This document shows, one piece after another, positions 3,958-55,743 of a stretch of 64,000 bases of DNA. Made by a program: the position numbers and the translations under genes. The notes under the pieces were generated by a model, which was not told the DNA's origin, ran no database searches, and saw nothing but the letters and a program-made list of their open reading frames with translations. Each line of letters opens with the position of its first letter. Within the stretch, counting starts at the first letter, position 1. This DNA comes from an uncultured bacterium (GTDB taxonomy: Bacteria > Patescibacteriota > Minisyncoccia > Phycocordibacterales > GWA1-40-21), in NCBI GenBank assembly GCA_903831305.1, contig CAIKXE010000011.1, positions 12,002-76,001 of the forward strand. Direction: 5' to 3'.

Positions 3958-6900
3958 ATGTCTAAAGAGCCTAGAAAAACAAATAAATCTAACGATATAA
4001 ATGAAACTTTTTCATACGGTGTAGTTTATGTTTATTCTATTCCGGACGAAAAACATAAGGGGCGTTTAAAAATCGGTAGTGCAACTATAACTTCAGCCAA
4101 GTCAACTCAAGATGACGTCAATTTAGCTGCTGAAGAGCGAATACAGCAACAAACAAAAACGGCTGATATTTCTTATGTACTTGAGCATGCAGAGCTCGCT
4201 ATTACAAATGACAACTGTTTTTTCCGTGATCATGATGTTCATGAAGTTCTCAAGCGATCAGGTTATGAACGTAAAACAGAGAATGTTAAAAATGCACACT
4301 CGGAGTGGTTTGAAGTTAGTTTAGACGTTGCAAAGAAAGCAATTCAAGCTGTAAAAGAAGGGCGAACAGCATTAATGACTGGAGAAAAAATTGCTCCCAA
4401 GACTTCTGAATTTTCTTTTCGTCCAAACCAGCGCGAAGCGATTGATAAAACTATCAGAGCCATTAAGAAAAATCGCAAACATTTTCTTTGGAATGCAAAG
4501 ATGCGTTTCGGTAAAACATCAGCGGCTATGCAAGTGGCTAAAGAGAATGAAATGAAAAGAGTCATTATCGTCACTCATCGCCCTAGCGTAAGTGTTGATT
4601 GGTACGATGACTTCAACAAAGTATTTATTGGCACAAACTATGAATACTCTTCAAAAACAAAAGGCTTAAATATAAGTACCCTCATGAAAGGTGACAAACC
4701 TTTTGTTTATTTTGCATCTTTACAAGATTTACGCTTATCAAAACGGGTAGTAGAGGATGGGTCCGCTGGATCTAAGGCTGCAGGATTTGATAAAAATGAT
4801 GAAGTTTTTGATACAACCTGGGACATGCTAATTATTGATGAAGCCCATGAGGGAACACAAAGTAATCTCGGGGATGCTACTTTTTTAAAGATACCAACAA
4901 ACTTTACGCTACAGCTTTCCGGCACACCTTTTAATATTCTACATAAGCACGAAGAAGAAGATATATACACCTGGGACTATGTAATGGAACAGGAAGCAAA
5001 GCTCAATTGGGACGAGCGCAATCCCGGAGTACCAAACCCTTATGCTGAACTACCAGCTCTGAGTATTTTTACTTACGACATAGATACATTTGCTAGCCAT
5101 ATTGGTAAATTAGGCGAAGGTTTTCATGATTCCTTAGACGGTGCTTTTAAATTCCATGAGTTTTTCCGTGTACAAAAAGATAATGAGGGTAATGATACTG
5201 CTGAGTTTGTCCATGAGCCGATGGTTAAGAAGTTCTTAGATTTATTGGCTGATGATAAGTTAAAGACAAAATTCCCATACGCGACAGAAGAATACCGTAA
5301 CTATAACAAGCATTCCCTCTGGTTATTACCGAATCGTGTCAAAGTTATTGAAGCAATGGAGAAATTGCTTAAGGACCACCAGATTTTTGGTTCTAATCAA
5401 TTTGGCGTTGTAAATATTTCTGGAGATAGTCGTGATGATGAAGAAGATAAAGACGCCAAGGATCGCGTTACCAAGGCAATTAAAAATTATGACTATACAA
5501 TAACACTAACAGGTCAACGTCTCACAACTGGGGCATCTGTTCCTGAATGGACAGCAATCTTTATGATGTCTGACACAAACTCTGCCACTACCTACTTACA
5601 GACAGCTTTTAGATGTCAAACTCCAGCAAGAATAGATGGTAAGCTAAAAACACAAGGATATGTATTTGATTTTGCTCCAGATCGTACTTTGAAACTGGTC
5701 GCTGAGGCGATAGAGCTTAACCACAAATCAGGAAAGACTAATTCACCAGAACAGAAAGAAGCGATGAGACAATTTCTTAACTTCTGCCCAATTTTAGCCG
5801 CGGAGGGTGGAACAATGAAGCTATATGATGTGGGGAAAATGCTCGTTCAATTGAAAAAAGCCATTATTGAAAGGGTTAGCCGTAATGGTTTTGATGATCC
5901 TAAATTATACAACGATGAGTTGTTACGACTTGATGAGCTAGATGTAGCTAAGTTTAATGCGCTCAAAGCTATTGTTGGTAAATCTACTAGTGAAAGAATA
6001 AACGAAATTGAGATTAACAGTCTTGGTATGACTGATCTCCAAGCAAAGAAAGCAGAAGAAGCTGAACGTAAGAATAAACAAAAGAAAGAGCTATCAGAAG
6101 AAGAAAAGGAAAATTTGAAAAAATTAAAGGAAGCCCGTGAGCAGAAGCAGACGGCTATTAGTATATTACGCGCTGTGAGTATACGTATGCCGATGTTGGT
6201 ATATGGAGCAAATGTATCAATCCACGATGATATAACTTTGCAAAAGTTTATTGAGCTTGTTGATGAAGAGTCTTGGCAAGAGTTTATGCCGGTGGGACTA
6301 ACAAAAGAAAAGTTTAAGGAATTTACTAAATATTATGATGAGGAAGTATTTAAGGGGGTTGCTCACAGTATTCGGGCCAAAGCTTTTGATTGTGATGACC
6401 TCTTACCGACAGATAGAATACGCACAATTTCTGAAATATTCAGCACTTTTAAGAATCCAGACAAGGAAACCGTCCTAACACCTTGGAATGTGGTGAATAT
6501 GCATCTAACCAAAGCTTTTGGTGGCCATGATTTTTGTAGTGAGGTTATAGATAAAAAAGGAAAACCAGAATGGAAGAGTTATAATGTTGATACTAGTGTA
6601 TGGTCCCAGGACGACACAAAGATCCTTGAAATAAATTCAAAGTCTGGTTTGTATCCCTTGTTAGCATGTTATAATGTATATTCGAGACAGCTTAAGAATA
6701 GTAAAGAGAGAAATAAACTAGAAGAGAAGATATTTAGACAAGTATGGAATAAGGTTTTGGCGGATAATATTTTCGTGCTTTGTAAGAGTCCAATGGCTGT
6801 GAGTATCACAAGACGAACGCTTGCCGGATATAGCGGTGCTAGGACGAATATTATTTATATTAAGGACCTGGTTAATAAACTCCAACAGAAAGGTGGTTTT

Positions 6901-31654: not shown

Positions 31655-32980
31655 ATGTACATTAACAAGCCACCCATAACGGTGGCAGAAAGGGAGTGTT
31701 ATATGTGGCAGATAAAGGTTCTTCTTGAGAAGTTCGTGTCGTTACTTGGTGTCGAAGTCAAGGTACGTGGACGGATCATCTCGATTCGTCGAATGAAGAG
31801 ATCAGTATTCGCTGATCTTTTTTCCATCGACTCGAAAGTACAATGTCGCTTTGATCCGGCAGGCGGTCTCTGCCCGAACAATGGCGACTTGGTTGAGGTC
31901 GTTGGGAAATGTGTTGTGTCAAAGAGTGGTGAATCGACGATTGACGTCTCAAGCGTAGTGGTTGTGGGCAAATGGTCTGCTAACATCGACTTTAAGGAAG
32001 TGTCGAATGGCGGATCTAGTCCACTTCTGGCTTTCATGCCAGGGGCGTATGGTCGCTTCCACTACTCACAGGTCGCTAGAAACCAAGTGAGGACATTCTT
32101 GACTTCCGAGGGTTATTTCGAGGTTCAGACCCCAATTCTTGGAAGGAATTACAACGGAGGTAGATCCTTTCCTGTATCGAGCTTTTGTTCTGGTAACAGG
32201 ATTGGTTTCAACAGAACGACGGTGGAAGATCGCATGCAAGCATTGATTGCAATGGGGTACGAAAGAGTTTTCCAGGTCGGTAGTGTGTTTCGTAGCGGAA
32301 AGGAATTAACCTTCCTCGAAGGGTACGAAGCATTCACTGAATGGGAAGCCGGCAAATGTCGTATCAAGCAGTTGCTTGCATCTGTAGTAGAAAAGCTCAT
32401 TCAAAGCGGAATCGGGAGTCCAAATGACACATCCGACCACCTGATTGGTTGTGATTGGTTAGAAGTGGATTTCCTTGACAGTGTGAGTGAGTCGACTAAG
32501 GTGTCGTCACAGCAGATAATGGAGGTAGACAGTACTCTTGCTGGATTTCTCAGAGATAGAGGGGTCATTAAGGAGGAAGAAGTATCGCCAGAAACCATCG
32601 CCGACGAACTGGCTAATCTTGTCGCCGAGGCGACGGGTGTGCCAACGATAGTCAATGGTTTTCCGGTCTGGTCATCTCCGTTGTATGCATTAAGTGAGGA
32701 TGGTGGTGAACGACTCGTTCGTAGTCGCATGTACATTCCAGGTCAAAAGGGTGGGTTTGAAATAGGTATGCAGGAAAACAATTACGAGAGATTTACTGAA
32801 AGGATTTCCCGACAGCGAAAGATGTGGAATTTGGCTACTGATGACGACCGAGTGAGAGAGTCGGATCTCTCTACGGTTATATCAGGTGGCTTACCACCAA
32901 CCTTTGGCTACGGGCTCAGTCCAGACAGACTCGTAAAGATATGGCGTCAGGATTGCAGTAATGACCCATATCGTGAGTAG
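31655..32980 (+). CDS. class IIb aminoacyl-tRNA synthetase paralog (AsnRS/AspRS/LysRS-like) with N-terminal OB-fold and apparently shortened motif-2 loop; GC-rich, compositionally foreign
   Basis: OB-like VEVKVRGRIISIRRMKRSVFADL. Motif 1 GYFEVQTPIL. Motif 2 core VFQVGSVFRSG-KELTFLEGYEAF lacks the ~8-aa ...RH..EF... loop. Motif 3 GGLPPTFGYGLSPDRLV. GC is visibly far above the flanks. Confidence 0.65.
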   Translation: MYINKPPITVAERECYMWQIKVLLEKFVSLLGVEVKVRGRIISIRRMKRSVFADLFSIDSKVQCRFDPAGGLCPNNGDLVEVVGKCVVSKSGESTIDVSSVVVVGKWSANIDFKEVSNGGSSPLLAFMPGAYGRFHYSQVARNQVRTFLTSEGYFEVQTPILGRNYNGGRSFPVSSFCSGNRIGFNRTTVEDRMQALIAMGYERVFQVGSVFRSGKELTFLEGYEAFTEWEAGKCRIKQLLASVVEKLIQSGIGSPNDTSDHLIGCDWLEVDFLDSVSESTKVSSQQIMEVDSTLAGFLRDRGVIKEEEVSPETIADELANLVAEATGVPTIVNGFPVWSSPLYALSEDGGERLVRSRMYIPGQKGGFEIGMQENNYERFTERISRQRKMWNLATDDDRVRESDLSTVISGGLPPTFGYGLSPDRLVKIWRQDCSNDPYRE

Positions 32981-33520: not shown

Positions 33521-34006
33521 ATGAAACTTACGCCTAAAATTGCAAAATTAACAGCTGAAAAGTATTTTAGAAAGCATAAAGATAAGGAGGAACGGGACTT
33601 TGCTAGGGTTCATACTGCGGCCGTAGTTGAAATAGCAGTAATTCTTGCAAAAAAGTTTAAAACGGATGTTTCTACAGTAGAAATATCTGGCTGGCTTCAT
33701 GATATCGGTTCTATCGTAGAGAGATCTGATCACGCTAAATACAGCCTTGATTTATTGAACAAAGAAGGATTTGAAGTCAGTCCGTTGATTAAGGATTGTA
33801 TTCTTAATCACGGGACAGATGGCAAACCGGAATCTAAAGAGGCTAAAATACTACAGATAGCGGACAAGCTCAGTATTTTGAGTATTCCTGTACTTAAACT
33901 CTTATTTAAACAAAAAAGCATCACCCCGTATGATATTGAATTTGTTGATAAAATGACAACAGGAGCGGTAGCTTACCTGAAAGAATTAAGCACAAAAGGA
34001 ATATAA
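33521..34006 (+). CDS. HD-domain protein
   Basis: RVHTAA, SGWLHDIGS, NHGTDG. Confidence 0.6.
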   Translation: MKLTPKIAKLTAEKYFRKHKDKEERDFARVHTAAVVEIAVILAKKFKTDVSTVEISGWLHDIGSIVERSDHAKYSLDLLNKEGFEVSPLIKDCILNHGTDGKPESKEAKILQIADKLSILSIPVLKLLFKQKSITPYDIEFVDKMTTGAVAYLKELSTKGI

Positions 34007-34617
34007 TGCTTCACGATATTACTTTCATAGCAATTGGCGTCATAGTTCTAGGAATAATCATCTTTCTCATCTCCAAAAACCTAAAACGAACCGCCCAAGT
34101 GATGTCCGGCTGGGGGATATACGAGGCGTATAATTTCTCTGTCGATTATGTTCTCTGGCCGGTCTTGCAGTCCCTCTACGGACTGTATGGTATTTTGATT
34201 TTAATTGTCATGGCCTTGATCAACAACTTTATCATCCTACTCTGGTATCACCGGAAGAAAGTTGACTGGTTGGGAGTCAGTGAAGTGGAGAATTTGAAGG
34301 CCAAGGGTCACTTATGGGTCCATCAGGTCAGTAATCATGAGAACTTGGTAAGAAGATTCAGTCTGTACCTCCCAGCCAAGTTCCTGCAATTTATGATTTG
34401 GATTCTTAATAAGAATGATATCTTTGCTTTCGTAACCCTTTCCGTCTGGCAGGATTCTTTTATTACTACCATTTTTCTCCGACACGGCTCCTTTGAAAAG
34501 TTAGATAAGCGTGATTACTTTATCTTTATTTTTAGCACCATTTTTGGCTGTTTGGGTTGGAGTTTGCTTATGCAGGTCATAATTACCGCCATCAGAGCTA
34601 TTTTAGGTTTTTTCTGA
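34006..34617 (+). CDS. hypothetical integral membrane protein
   Basis: About 5 hydrophobic helices. No motif. Confidence 0.5.
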   Translation: MLHDITFIAIGVIVLGIIIFLISKNLKRTAQVMSGWGIYEAYNFSVDYVLWPVLQSLYGLYGILILIVMALINNFIILLWYHRKKVDWLGVSEVENLKAKGHLWVHQVSNHENLVRRFSLYLPAKFLQFMIWILNKNDIFAFVTLSVWQDSFITTIFLRHGSFEKLDKRDYFIFIFSTIFGCLGWSLLMQVIITAIRAILGFF

Positions 34618-39290: not shown

Positions 39291-39670
39291 TTGATTTATA
39301 GATTAATAATAAATTTACACGAGGGACTAACTCGTGTGCTATGAGGATCTATATCGACCTGATTCTCATTGATATAGTTTTAAATGGTTTGTGGTGATAA
39401 TTTAAAAGGGGGTATGGGGGGGGCTGTCTGATTTGTTCCATGGCCGGTAGCGGGTGGATAGGGGGAAACGACCCTATTTGTGTCCTGGGCTACTATTTTA
39501 AAAAAGGTGGGGGGTTGTTTCAAAAGTGTGTCTCCATAAAATTTCTGCCGGAATTTTTGGAAAAGGACGTTTGCCTTATTTTGACTTTGGAGCTATGATT
39601 ATGGAGTCGGAAAAATTGAATAAATAGTAATCTAAATCAGAGAGTAAAATCTCTGACATGATGAAAAAAT

Positions 39671-39777
39671 CTGCAACAGTTTAAAGAACCCAGCATATGG
39701 GGCTACTGTTGCAGTCATATCGGGAAACCGGTATGGAGGGCCACAAGCTCTCACCTATGTGCTGGGCTTTTTGCGTC
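39671..39777 (+). ncRNA. structured RNA candidate (leader/riboregulator or sRNA) ending in intrinsic terminator
   Basis: Perfect 10-bp stem ctgcaacagt/actgttgcag. A 7-bp GAAA-tetraloop hairpin atatcgg-gaaa-ccggtat. Long-range cccagcatatg/tatgtgctggg pairing followed by ctttttg. Confidence 0.4.
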
Positions 39778-53753: not shown

Positions 53754-54419
53754 ATGAATAAAACTAAGCTTAAAAAAATAGAGGAGAAAATAAATAACCG
53801 GATTGAAGATAAAATCCTATCCCTGAAGATTTTTGATGAGCCACGCCCAAATTATATTTCTGATGTCACTATTATTGATCGGGTTTTAGAGAAGACTGTT
53901 TTGAAACTGTTCCCGCTCTTTATTCGCCCAAACTTTTTAACTATTTTTAGGTTTATTTCTATTCCTTTCATTGTTTTACTTTTGTTATCAGAAAATTATG
54001 TGTTTGGTTTTTGGTTGTTTATTGTGTCAGCTTTTACAGATGCTTTAGACGGGGCCATGGCCAGAACCAGGAATCAGATCACCGACTGGGGAATAGTTTT
54101 TGATCCTTTTGCTGATAAACTTTTAATTAGCAGTGTTTCTTTAATTGTGATTTCTAAATTCATTAGTCCGGTTTTGGCGGGGATAATAGTAGCCATAGAA
54201 GCTTTTTTGATAATTTCTTCTTATATTCGCTTCAAAGGGGAAGTGGTACCAGCCAAAACTGCGGGCAAGATAAAAATGATTTTACAATCTGTGGGAGTGG
54301 GGTTTTTATTATTATCAATTATGCTTAATCTGCCAGTCCTTATTATTGTTTCTACCTATATTTTGTATTTAGCTATCATCTTTGCTCTCCTTAGCTTGTT
54401 TGTCTATCGGTCTATTTAG
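53754..54419 (+). CDS. CDP-alcohol phosphatidyltransferase family protein
   Basis: DALDGAMAR-x8-G-x3-D-x3-D (DALDGAMARTRNQITDWGIVFDPFADK). Confidence 0.8.
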   Translation: MNKTKLKKIEEKINNRIEDKILSLKIFDEPRPNYISDVTIIDRVLEKTVLKLFPLFIRPNFLTIFRFISIPFIVLLLLSENYVFGFWLFIVSAFTDALDGAMARTRNQITDWGIVFDPFADKLLISSVSLIVISKFISPVLAGIIVAIEAFLIISSYIRFKGEVVPAKTAGKIKMILQSVGVGFLLLSIMLNLPVLIIVSTYILYLAIIFALLSLFVYRSI

Positions 54420-54503
54420 TACTTGACAAAACGTATTTAATTGTCTATTCTATTTTTAGATTGTTTGAGCACCTAGATTCTATGTAGAGAGAAAGGGGTA
54501 GCT

Positions 54504-55088
54504 ATGGCCACGAAGTTTGTGTACCTGCAAGGGGAGGATAGAGAGTTTTTGACTGATCTGTGCCAAGGGATGTATCTGGACGGTTCCTGCTACATCTTTG
54601 CCTTGGCCATGCATCGTGCCCTGGGCTGGCCGATCATCGGTCTCATGGAGGGACGCACTATCCGGCATGCTCTAGTGAGGCACCCCGGTGGTAAGCTCTG
54701 GGATGTCCGTGGGCCGGTGCCGGAGGAGATGGCGGTTGCCCCGTTTGGTCTCGCCACCTATGACTTCTCAGAAGTGGCCGAGGCCGAGCTCGTTACCCTC
54801 TGTCATGGTGAGGAGCACGTGGAGTACAAGGTAGAAATGGCCGAGAGGATGGCCCAGTCCCTGTGGCCGAACTTGCCCTGGAAGTCCAGTCAAAAGGAAC
54901 GTCTTCAGGAGTTTGCGGATGGGCTGGAGGAGTTGTCCAGGCGGACAGGGGTTTGGATTCGCAGTCCGGTGCCTGGTTGCCCGCCTGTTCTCGCCCCTGG
55001 TCTGGGGGATGAGGGCGGCTACCGGCTGAGTCAGATGCCCGTCCCCCAAGGCTACACAATAGACCGGTACTTCCCGGCCTTGATGTAA
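54504..55088 (+). CDS. hypothetical protein encoded in GC-rich foreign segment
   Basis: 194-aa ORF in a ~0.6-kb stretch that is far more GC-rich than the window. Codon usage is unlike its neighbours. No motif. Confidence 0.45.
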   Translation: MATKFVYLQGEDREFLTDLCQGMYLDGSCYIFALAMHRALGWPIIGLMEGRTIRHALVRHPGGKLWDVRGPVPEEMAVAPFGLATYDFSEVAEAELVTLCHGEEHVEYKVEMAERMAQSLWPNLPWKSSQKERLQEFADGLEELSRRTGVWIRSPVPGCPPVLAPGLGDEGGYRLSQMPVPQGYTIDRYFPALM

Positions 55089-55194
55089 AAAAAGGAAAGC
55101 ACAAATATCACTCGAGAAGGTCACCCGACCGCTCGGGTGATTTTCTTTTTAGGCTGTAAAATTATCCTTTTATATGTTAGGATACTTTTTAGAT

Positions 55195-55279
55195 GGAGAG
55201 ATGCGAGAGTGGTTTAATCGACAGACCTGGAAAGTCTGCGTGGGGCAACCCACCAAGGGTTCGAATCCCTTTCTCTCCG
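55195..55279 (+). tRNA. tRNA-Ser (anticodon GGA)
   Basis: Acceptor ggagaga/tctctcc. 3-bp D stem. Anticodon stem cagac/gtctg with loop cuGGAaa. Long variable arm. T arm aaggg-ttcgaat-ccctt. No CCA encoded. Confidence 0.8.
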
Positions 55280-55305
55280 CAATTTTTAGTGATATTATGT
55301 AGGTT

Positions 55306-55743
55306 ATGAAATCTAAGATATTAATAACCAGCATAATAATTTTAGTGGTGGTTTTTGTTTTAGTGGCGTTTTCCGCAAGGAAAAGTCCCCAAATAACCAT
55401 TGCCGGTAATACTTGGGTAGTGGAGCTAGCTGATACGGAGGATAAACAGACTTTGGGTTTGTCCAGCCGAGCCAGCTTGGTGGAAAAAACTGGTTTACTT
55501 TTTACTTTTCCAAGATTAGATAAACAATATTTCTGGATGAAGGACATGCTTTTCCCGATTGATATGATTTTTCTTGATGATAAGTGGAAAATTGTTTTAA
55601 TTGAATCAAATGTTGGGCCAGAAACTTTTCCCACAACTTTTGGTGGGCAAATTTTGGCTAAATACGTATTAGAAGTGAATGCAGGAGAAGCCAAGAAGGC
55701 AGATTTGAAAGTGGGGGACACGGCCGTTTTTCAAATTAACTAA
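55306..55743 (+). CDS. DUF192 family protein (membrane-anchored)
   Basis: YFWMKDMLFPIDMIFLD is the DUF192/COG1430 signature. Confidence 0.65.
   Translation: MKSKILITSIIILVVVFVLVAFSARKSPQITIAGNTWVVELADTEDKQTLGLSSRASLVEKTGLLFTFPRLDKQYFWMKDMLFPIDMIFLDDKWKIVLIESNVGPETFPTTFGGQILAKYVLEVNAGEAKKADLKVGDTAVFQIN

Follow-up and report, generated by a model that had tools for sequence, protein, structure and literature searches.

A single open reading frame (ORF), coding for a protein of 194 aa, is found between a pgsA-like gene and a tRNA-Ser(GGA) gene in a 64,000-nt stretch of contig CAIKXE010000011.1 (hereafter called the window). The host is probably a low-GC (~38%) Patescibacteria/Paceibacteria bacterium of the candidate phyla radiation (CPR). 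The ORF, 54504..55088 on the plus strand, starts with ATG, and its stop codon is located 106 nt 5' of the tRNA gene; in the original prediction it had been singled out as a GC-rich block of about 0.6 kb, lying in an AT-rich background and ending about 105 nt before the tRNA, in good agreement with the values reported here. Together with the signals that surround it (Table 1), the block is quite probably a self-contained cassette of ~730 nt, acquired horizontally at a tRNA-linked hot spot.

Table 1. Features recognized at the pgsA/tRNA-Ser(GGA) locus; positions refer to the window.
Feature	Position	Strand	Evidence
pgsA-like CDP-alcohol phosphatidyltransferase, 221 aa, left host flank, GC 0.339 (host-like)	53754..54419	+	NCBIfam TIGR00560 (E = 3e-25), Pfam PF01066
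Proposed inserted cassette, promoter-like site to terminator, ~730 nt	54420..55152	+	Absent from host relatives; homology boundaries
Promoter-like site TTGACA-17 nt-TATTCT, followed by conserved leader (GTCTATTCTATTTTTAGATTG)	54423..54451	+	10/12 consensus matches
11-nt GAGAGAAAGGG, perfect inverted match to the tRNA-Ser 3' end (55267-55277), overlapping the ribosome binding site	54487..54497	.	
Shine-Dalgarno-like GAAAGGGG, 5 nt 5' of ATG	54491..54498	+	Sequence itself; GGAGG-type motifs at the same place in relatives
194-aa ORF, predicted Cys29-His55-Asp67 enzyme of an unannotated ~190-aa family	54504..55088	+	
Intrinsic terminator, hairpin (TCACCCG...CGGGTGA core) followed by TTTTCTTTTT	55107..55152	+	RNA fold
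Native pgsA-tRNA spacer, kept intact, probable tRNA promoter	55153..55194	+	Aligns to L034 spacer
tRNA-Ser(GGA)	55195..55280	+	ARAGORN; Rfam RF00005, 54 bits
DUF192/UPF0127 protein, 145 aa, right host flank	55306..55743	+	Pfam PF02643; downstream of tRNA-Ser in seven relatives

Base composition and organization of the cassette

The GC content of the ORF is 0.595, compared with 0.378 for the whole window, where the richest 585-nt stretch is 54501-55085 (GC 0.598, z = 4.5; runner-up 0.487). In order to locate the excess, GC was calculated at the three codon positions (GC1, GC2 and GC3) and compared with the values of 52 other window ORFs of at least 120 aa: the ORF shows 0.64/0.44/0.70, against 0.45/0.33/0.354 for the others. 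The GC3 value stands well outside the distribution of the comparison set (0.354 +/- 0.073, z = 4.8), in which the highest value is 0.525, and the anomaly therefore sits in synonymous sites, not in amino-acid content alone. Both base composition and codon usage are, by these measures, atypical for the host.

The protein had also been described as rich in Arg, Gly and Pro, and unlike its neighbours in this respect, and this too is borne out: Gly (9.8%) and Pro (7.7%) are the highest among the 53 ORFs compared, and Lys, Asn and Ile the lowest, with Arg (6.7%) ranking 7. All together, Gly, Ala, Arg and Pro account for 32% of the residues, against 19.1 +/- 3.2% in the 53-ORF comparison. At the two sides of the block, GC falls to 0.23-0.30, as measured in 40-nt windows at 54421-54480 and 55141-55200. 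The AT-rich flanks anticipated by the prediction are present on both sides, but most of what had been taken as spacer is part of the inserted unit, with promoter and leader at 54420-54503 and the terminator at 55089-55152, and only 55153-55194 is native.

Two minus-strand ORFs within the block (118 and 103 aa) were discarded as shadows typical of GC-rich DNA; homology backs the plus strand ORF. Two further plus strand ORFs, 31655-32980 (441 aa, GC 0.476, GC3 0.48) and 34006-34617 (203 aa, GC3 0.525), come next in GC richness in the window, and are far less deviant than the 194-aa ORF.

The promoter-like site, from which the gene would be expressed, begins 3 nt past the pgsA stop codon (54417-54419). 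At the other end, the terminator hairpin has a predicted folding energy of -24.8 kcal/mol (z = -4.7), a value not reached by any shuffle of the same sequence, and it is followed by UUUUCUUUUU. Both signals were also found around the nearest relatives of the gene, coding for proteins (P0004 in locus L007 and P0003 in locus L010) which share 52-55% identity with the window protein and 79% with each other, and which are located in unrelated contexts (ABC transporter, gene and zinc ribbon in L007; NUDIX and gene in L010). On the 5' side the three loci share the pattern TTGACA, 14 nt, GT.TA.T.TA.TTT.AGA..G, corresponding to a -35 box, a 17-nt spacer, a TA(T/A)T(C/A)T -10 box and the leader. On the 3' side homology runs from the stop codon through the hairpin (atcacccg.ga.ggtca...cgggtga) to the tail tttctttttag, and stops at 55152.

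A similar hairpin lies downstream of the gene in L017 and, more in general, a strong hairpin, usually with a T-run, is found just 3' of the gene in most of the 24 family members examined, which look like stand-alone monocistronic genes. Besides the promoter and terminator common to the closest relatives, no conserved DNA signal was found to flank the family genes at the 24 loci. Since the same promoter-gene-terminator arrangement occurs in unrelated neighbourhoods of other genomes, this would be the unit which survives transfer. In the window, a putative promoter, a single ORF and a terminator, set between two genes that are adjacent in relatives, form what has the make-up of an autonomous unit.

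Empty sites in relatives and variants of the junctions

The pgsA-like protein was used as a query against metagenome contigs, and 18 loci were returned. In 14 of them pgsA, whose product is 51-76% identical to that of the window, is followed by tRNA-Ser(GGA). HtpX is kept upstream in all 12 of these relatives whose contigs reach it, most of them also showing SBP(-), a SecG-like gene and LemA; seven continue to DUF192 and class II ribonucleotide reductase. No homologue of the GC-rich ORF was detected at any of the 18 loci (tblastn at 1e-6). The finding that would have spoken for an ancient gene, namely a syntenic copy with the same high GC in related genomes, was looked for at the same 18 loci and not encountered, and the 24 loci which do carry family members have no synteny in common.

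The distance between pgsA and the tRNA gene, 775 nt in the window, is 34-41 nt in five relatives (L034, L035, L037, L047 and L048), 111-261 nt in eight others and 709 nt in L033. Positions 55154-55190 of the window align to the whole 40-nt spacer of L034 with 31/37 identities, a score reached by none of 500 shuffles; the same stretch aligns to the spacer of L035 with P = 0.018. The ancestral spacer, presumably the tRNA promoter, is therefore intact at the right edge. Here the two homologies meet almost exactly, as that to L007 and L010 stops at 55152 and that to the native spacer of L034 starts at 55154; the left end falls past the pgsA stop codon and before the conserved TTGACA (54423). Given the absence of the gene and the short spacers in relatives, and the retention of the native spacer in the window, the extra DNA therefore corresponds to about 54420-55152. 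The insertion proposed in the original prediction is thus matched by 14 relatives in which the gene is missing between pgsA and tRNA-Ser(GGA), as well as by a native spacer that is still recognizable, and the site is found empty as expected for horizontal acquisition. The cassette would have been placed right after the stop codon of the pgsA-like gene and right before the native tRNA-Ser(GGA) spacer of ~40 nt, with neither neighbour being disrupted.

The host is known from metagenome assemblies only, and the change in GC is abrupt; the block could in principle be a GC-rich fragment of another organism, mis-joined by chimeric assembly or contamination. This explanation is hardly credible. The exact 194-aa protein is recorded on 17 contigs. 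The six that were retrieved derive from different samples and were built by different assemblers, and all match the window at 100% identity; in four cases (L001-L004) the contig runs from pgsA, or from farther upstream, through the gene, the tRNA and DUF192 to ribonucleotide reductase. Both junctions are identical in independent assemblies (ENA scaffolds, MEGAHIT k141 contigs, Logan), and a chimeric join is therefore very unlikely; moreover, the insert begins and ends exactly at functional signals.

Alternative junctions, which a chimera might also explain, were found in two contigs. The first, 'Ema-UXGg' (11,113 bp; ENA+JGI+NCBI), carries an identical 194-aa gene and the same right flank at equal spacing (DUF192, ribonucleotide reductase, MurJ), with a different left flank composed of Crp, two TldD/PmbA genes and DUF1731 on the minus strand, separated by a 412-nt gap. 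The second, L051:1-1092, corresponds to window 54445-55280 (835/836 identity) plus 256 nt of unrelated DNA, which match none of the sequences gathered for comparison in this analysis. It departs from the window at the first base past the 3' end of tRNA-Ser, where CCA is encoded. In this contig the substitution T55086A removes the stop codon, resulting in a 237-aa read-through product (P0373). These variants leave room for a larger or more complex event, which may have been the co-transfer of a tRNA allele or, in part of the population, an integration at the tRNA 3' end.

The tRNA-Ser alleles of the relatives bear on the same point. The allele of the window is identical to that of L033 (86/86) and differs at 23-24 of 86 positions from those of L034 and L036, which match one another at 85/86; the flanking proteins put the four genomes about equidistant from one another. 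The allele shared by the window and L033 may have been replaced or co-converted. In L033 the same pgsA/tRNA-Ser spacer contains an ORF of 231 aa with host-like GC (L033:6703-7398), coding for a LAGLIDADG homing-endonuclease-like protein (PF14528, E = 3e-9), which abuts the tRNA-Ser gene identical to that of the window.

Accordingly worded, the alternative is that a larger segment was acquired, in which the cassette and the tRNA-Ser(GGA) allele arrived as one, the recombination having its anchor in the conserved tRNA gene; the route would be homology-facilitated illegitimate recombination or co-conversion by a homing endonuclease, and the tRNA itself would be foreign. The pgsA/tRNA spacer is occupied by an insert in both of the genomes that have this allele, L051 retains the cassette together with the tRNA and diverges just past the tRNA 3' end, and the other variant contig has a different left flank, all of which would fit such an event. 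However, the stretch of 40 nt which separates cassette and tRNA is homologous to the native spacer of L034 and L035, found there before the other allele, and this speaks for a junction of cassette and spacer; the window and L033 could be sister lineages that inherited their allele, LemA being most similar between them (92.7%); and the insert of L033 has host-like GC and is unrelated to the cassette. On this evidence both the joint acquisition and the routes proposed for it are considered rather unlikely, and insertion of the ~730-nt cassette alone is preferred.

The protein family and its probable source

A word-index search for relatives of the 194-aa protein returned 6 clusters, and an exhaustive phmmer scan of 1.84 billion representatives returned 279 clusters at E <= 0.001 (193 of them at E <= 1e-10), with a length of 185-200 aa in almost every case. 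All the named members identified by profile search belong to metagenome-assembled genomes (MAGs) of Parcubacteria/Paceibacteria type (Wildermuthbacteria, Adlerbacteria, Kaiserbacteria, Paceibacterota), and the 22 family loci obtained from species-representative genomes are almost all labelled as MAGs of Patescibacteria type. Outside Patescibacteria, distant full-length homologues, 33-35% identical, are found on two Bosea sp. megaplasmids (L052:5911-6531 and L053:5977-6621; hhalign probability 99.7%, E = 3.5e-25 for the L052 copy). The Bosea copies are annotated as hypothetical and are convergent to an AAA ATPase and an RNA ligase family gene; this neighbourhood was dropped as a functional clue, being common to two related plasmids only. 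No neighbour family is present, within +/-5 genes, at more than 3 of the 24 family loci. The distribution is patchy and the neighbourhood is not conserved, as is usual for genes acquired horizontally.

In the members measured, GC1 (0.62-0.64) and GC2 (0.41-0.44) are nearly constant regardless of host GC. GC3 varies between 0.33 and 0.82, in most cases following that of the host, with exceptions in both directions. Besides the window gene (0.70, host 0.35, z = +4.8), values above those of the host are shown by L014 (0.475 against 0.30, z = +4.3), L017 (0.33 against 0.28, z = +3.0) and L025 (0.39 against 0.26, z = +2.2), and values below it by L011 (0.40 against 0.55, z = -1.7) and L031 (0.33 against 0.41, z = -1.6). 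GC3 is discordant with the host both ways, and the ~190-aa family therefore moves among genomes of differing GC.

The constancy of GC1 and GC2 indicates that part of the GC excess comes from the protein sequence itself, and would be in line with an ancient gene, vertically inherited, whose high GC simply follows from the amino-acid composition that its function needs. Such an origin is most improbable, as it does not account for a GC3 of 0.70 in a host at 0.35, when the other members mostly track their hosts, nor for the empty sites in 14 relatives, nor for the lack of synteny among family loci.

Members found in Patescibacteria of 49-57% GC (L015, L016 and L018) have GC3 values of 0.6-0.8, like their hosts, and in L043, a host relative of 52% GC with the same synteny, genes reach a GC3 comparable to 0.70. 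The source genome is one with GC3 of about 0.7 and roughly 50-57% GC, in keeping with the high-GC donor of the original prediction; it would most likely be another member of the same radiation, which is the home of the ~190-aa family. The homology search suggested for the donor lineage failed to identify one, the nearest protein being ~55% identical. As to the claim that acquisition was recent, it holds only in the sense that the gene arrived once the host had parted from the sampled relatives, and has yet to undergo compositional amelioration.

The protein was also compared to domain and structure collections. No match was found in NCBIfam, PHROGs or PADLOC, and in Pfam only a sub-threshold one, to PF24591 Phage_YunG-like (13.2 bits, E = 0.081, under the 27-bit gathering threshold). 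Of 101 family members, 38 match the same domain weakly over residues ~23-78, where the Cys-His-Asp set is located (best E = 1.7e-4), in all cases under the gathering score. No literature was found on YunG or YunG-like proteins. Compared to these, the family is ~75-80 residues longer, and has a strongly conserved C-terminal half which they lack.

An AlphaFold2 model, obtained from the 101-sequence alignment, is of high confidence, with a predicted local distance difference test (pLDDT) score of 95 and a predicted template modelling (pTM) score of 0.87. In the model Cys29 starts a helix (29-40), His55 lies in a strand (52-59) and Asp67 ends the next one (65-67), and this is the arrangement expected for the papain/transglutaminase fold, with Cys at a helix N-terminus and His and Asp on consecutive beta-strands. 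The three residues are present in 100, 101 and 100 of the 101 members, respectively; Tyr30 and Gly70 are invariant and Arg69 is found in 99 of 101. The N-terminal half weakly resembles papain/transglutaminase-fold deamidases; the enzymes of this fold with a Cys-His-Asp triad taken into account were protein-glutaminase, NTAQ1/C8orf32, TecA, OspI, SseI, arylamine N-acetyltransferase and NlpC/P60. The C-terminal half contains near-invariant WPxLPW, ELExLSR, E170-G172-Y173 and R188, and no relative of it could be recognized.

Proteins corresponding to the N-terminal half alone were also observed. A 124-aa Vibrio plasmid protein, itself a weak match of PF24591, aligns to this domain with the Cys, His and Asp in register (hhalign probability 96%), and a 116-aa Salinibacter phage protein superposes on it with a TM score of 0.61 (normalised to target). 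Foldseek found nothing in the PDB at E <= 0.001, and in BFVD only weak matches to uncharacterised phage proteins; by sequence profile, the sole PDB match was 3rmq, an uncharacterised 116-aa protein (E = 0.037). By eye, no obvious N-terminal hydrophobic signal is present, and the product is predicted to be cytoplasmic. The model makes it plausible, with confidence evenly balanced, that the product would be a thiol hydrolase (a deamidase, amidase or peptidase) with a papain/transglutaminase-type Cys29-His55-Asp67 triad and a family-specific substrate-binding half.

The tRNA neighbourhood and the nature of the transfer

The association of the gene with a tRNA is not confined to the window. A tRNA gene is found no farther than 200 nt away for 6 of 24 family genes, compared with 14 of the 412 other ORFs at the same loci (Fisher P = 3.4e-4). 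The six tRNAs concerned are all different (Ser-GGA, His, Glu, Trp, Gln and Pro), and the tRNA-adjacent members, four of which are 5' of the tRNA and two 3', span at least 3 subclades. The members of a sister trio (L012, L013 and L014) are each within 200 nt of a different tRNA (His, Glu and Trp), implying relocation between tRNA neighbourhoods inside one subclade.

The tRNA-Ser(GGA) locus is, in the relatives of the host, a hot spot for accessory and defence genes. In addition to the endonuclease of L033, located as the cassette in the pgsA/tRNA-Ser spacer, the sequences found 3' of the tRNA include a GmrSD restriction enzyme (L048:536-2308), an AAA_12 helicase with a REase_MTES_1575 nuclease (L038:7057-8370), a NUDIX protein (L044:754-1179), a GDSL lipase (L039:2891-3469) and a MliC-domain protein (L043:6933-7799), with unknown ORFs at other loci. 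No paper on tRNA-linked islands in Patescibacteria was found in the literature.

Other features of the locus were noted along the way. A conserved element of ~140 nt lies 5' of tRNA-Ser in four relatives (L039:~2020-2160, L040:~4030-4170, L043:~6710-6810 and L044:~455-580); it is composed of a tRNA-Ser-like 5' start (GGAGGGTTCGCATAGTTGG), a conserved GC-rich insert of ~100 nt (..caaagacggagcgcgacggcgcgag..gggtcg..) and, at its end, the anticodon arm (GACCTGGAAAGTCT). It matches no Rfam family at gathering score and could be a disrupted tRNA copy or an unknown RNA. Inverted remnants of the 3' end of the other tRNA-Ser allele (..TACCCTCCGC) are found at L036:6643-6920 and L033:7462-7520, L036 also containing an inverted tRNA-Ser gene; by eye, the region downstream in L033 resembles the reverse complement of the spacer end of L036, a likeness suggesting inversions around this tRNA. 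The Rfam scan of the region found only the tRNA; elsewhere in the window, a LOOT RNA (RF03000) was recognized at 39629-39752 on the plus strand (78.8 bits, gathering score 46.4).

The borders of the insert were searched for the traces that integration at a tRNA gene would leave. Direct matches between the tRNA and either border reach 6 nt at most, and the tRNA-Ser end is not found directly repeated. Short direct repeats, for which the original prediction had proposed a search of the borders, did not materialize: the best one, the 9-nt TTTTTAGAT (54453 and 55186), considered as a possible target-site duplication, was rejected, as it has P = 0.055 in shuffles and its left copy belongs to the leader conserved in L007 and L010. 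The inverted match GAGAGAAAGGG reaches a shuffle P of ~5e-4, in a post hoc test, and is possibly a scar or a coincidence. The insert consists of one ORF with no similarity to recombinases, and no integrase or recombinase was detected among the called neighbours (pgsA-like, DUF192). Of the 'classic insertion site' originally proposed, the variable hot spot and the enrichment near tRNAs stand, but the insert lies 5' of the tRNA, with neither integrase nor significant direct repeats, so that the integrase/att mechanism which the phrase implies is not supported.

The same observations bear on the hypothesis that a larger integrative element, a prophage or genomic island, was once integrated at tRNA-Ser and has since decayed, this one cargo gene being all that is left. 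This could explain the enrichment of the family beside tRNA genes, the defence-type cargo (GmrSD, helicase-nuclease) at the tRNA-Ser locus of relatives, the L051 junction at exactly the tRNA 3' end, a classic att position, the 11-nt inverted copy of that end at the left edge of the GC-rich block, and the weak likeness of the N-terminal domain to phage YunG-like proteins. Such a history is nonetheless very unlikely. The insert sits 5' of the tRNA, its ends coincide with a promoter and a terminator which travel with the gene in other genomes, and the native spacer has been kept whole; the neighbours that were called and annotated have housekeeping roles, none being an integrase, and the tRNA end is not directly repeated. 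Relatives of the protein, which might have pointed to a phage vector, were not found in IMG/VR viral contigs, searched with two peptide patterns, and only one non-significant match was obtained among GenBank phages.

The preferred reading remains that of a single cassette acquired horizontally. It would have entered through recombination of taken-up DNA at a permissive, recombination-prone spacer linked to the tRNA, and not by the action of an integrase. Several points weigh against it. The promoter is a consensus match only, and such sites are no commoner in the region than in shuffles; no target-site duplication or att-like repeat was found at the borders; the two contigs with alternative junctions, one at the left flank and one at the right flank from the tRNA 3' end, are unexplained by a simple model; the closest homologue is ~55% identical, the donor not being among the sampled genomes; a rough neighbour-joining tree puts the window copy on a long branch, among members from low-GC hosts; and the taxonomic label of the host was deduced from how its homologues are named.

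The cassette may be compared with several known systems. Phage 'morons' are reportedly, in the work of Hendrix and colleagues, autonomous promoter-gene-terminator units set between adjacent genes, often of deviant base composition. Like these, the cassette has a promoter-like site, one ORF and an intrinsic terminator, is placed cleanly between genes adjacent in relatives and has an odd base composition. Unlike these, it does not reside in a phage or prophage genome, being located among chromosomal housekeeping genes with no phage genes nearby, and its family was not found in viral collections. Similarly to tRNA-linked genomic islands, it adjoins a tRNA at a variable locus, which has defence-type cargo in some relatives, and belongs to a tRNA-enriched family; it differs from them, and from integrative elements, in its placement 5' of the tRNA and in comprising one gene only (0.73 kb). 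Of the marks of a tRNA-targeted integrative element, neither the integrase nor the att direct repeat, with the element 3' of the tRNA, was found.

Integron gene cassettes are also compact single-ORF mobile units, found in many genomic contexts, but the cassette described here has its own promoter-like site and a plain hairpin/T-run terminator. No GTTRRRY core site was seen by eye at its 3' end (no attC model was run), and neither an integron integrase (intI) nor a cassette array is present among the neighbours, so that it does not qualify as an integron cassette. The transfer of one gene beside a tRNA is in itself an ordinary phenomenon, and the locus is a moron-like single-gene acquisition.

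Gene flow in the CPR is hard to study, as the organisms are mostly uncultured and few mobile elements have been recognized in their genomes. The locus offers an unusually clean case, resolved at the base pair, where the empty site, both boundaries and the same unit in other genomes are available. It indicates that the transfer of single accessory genes between CPR lineages which differ widely in GC can take place without a recognisable integrase, and that tRNA-proximal spacers serve as landing sites. The parts most worth following are the protein family and its recurring location near tRNAs. The former, unannotated, composed of ~280 clusters, with a near-invariant Cys-His-Asp set and a confident model without a close solved relative, is a reasonable target for structural and biochemical work.

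A bolder view, regarded as quite unlikely, is that the ~190-aa family travels as a minimal promoter-to-terminator cassette, which has no recombinase of its own but moves by preference to intergenic DNA close to tRNA genes in Patescibacteria, and whose product would be a new class of Cys-His-Asp enzyme conferring a benefit independent of the host, for example in conflicts with phages or between host and symbiont. Relocation could then proceed through recombination anchored in the highly conserved tRNA genes, with co-conversion of the tRNA allele, as the window and L033 suggest, or through mobilisation in trans. If this were true, the cassette would be a single-gene mobile unit of a kind of its own, rather than something carried along passively by generic gene transfer.

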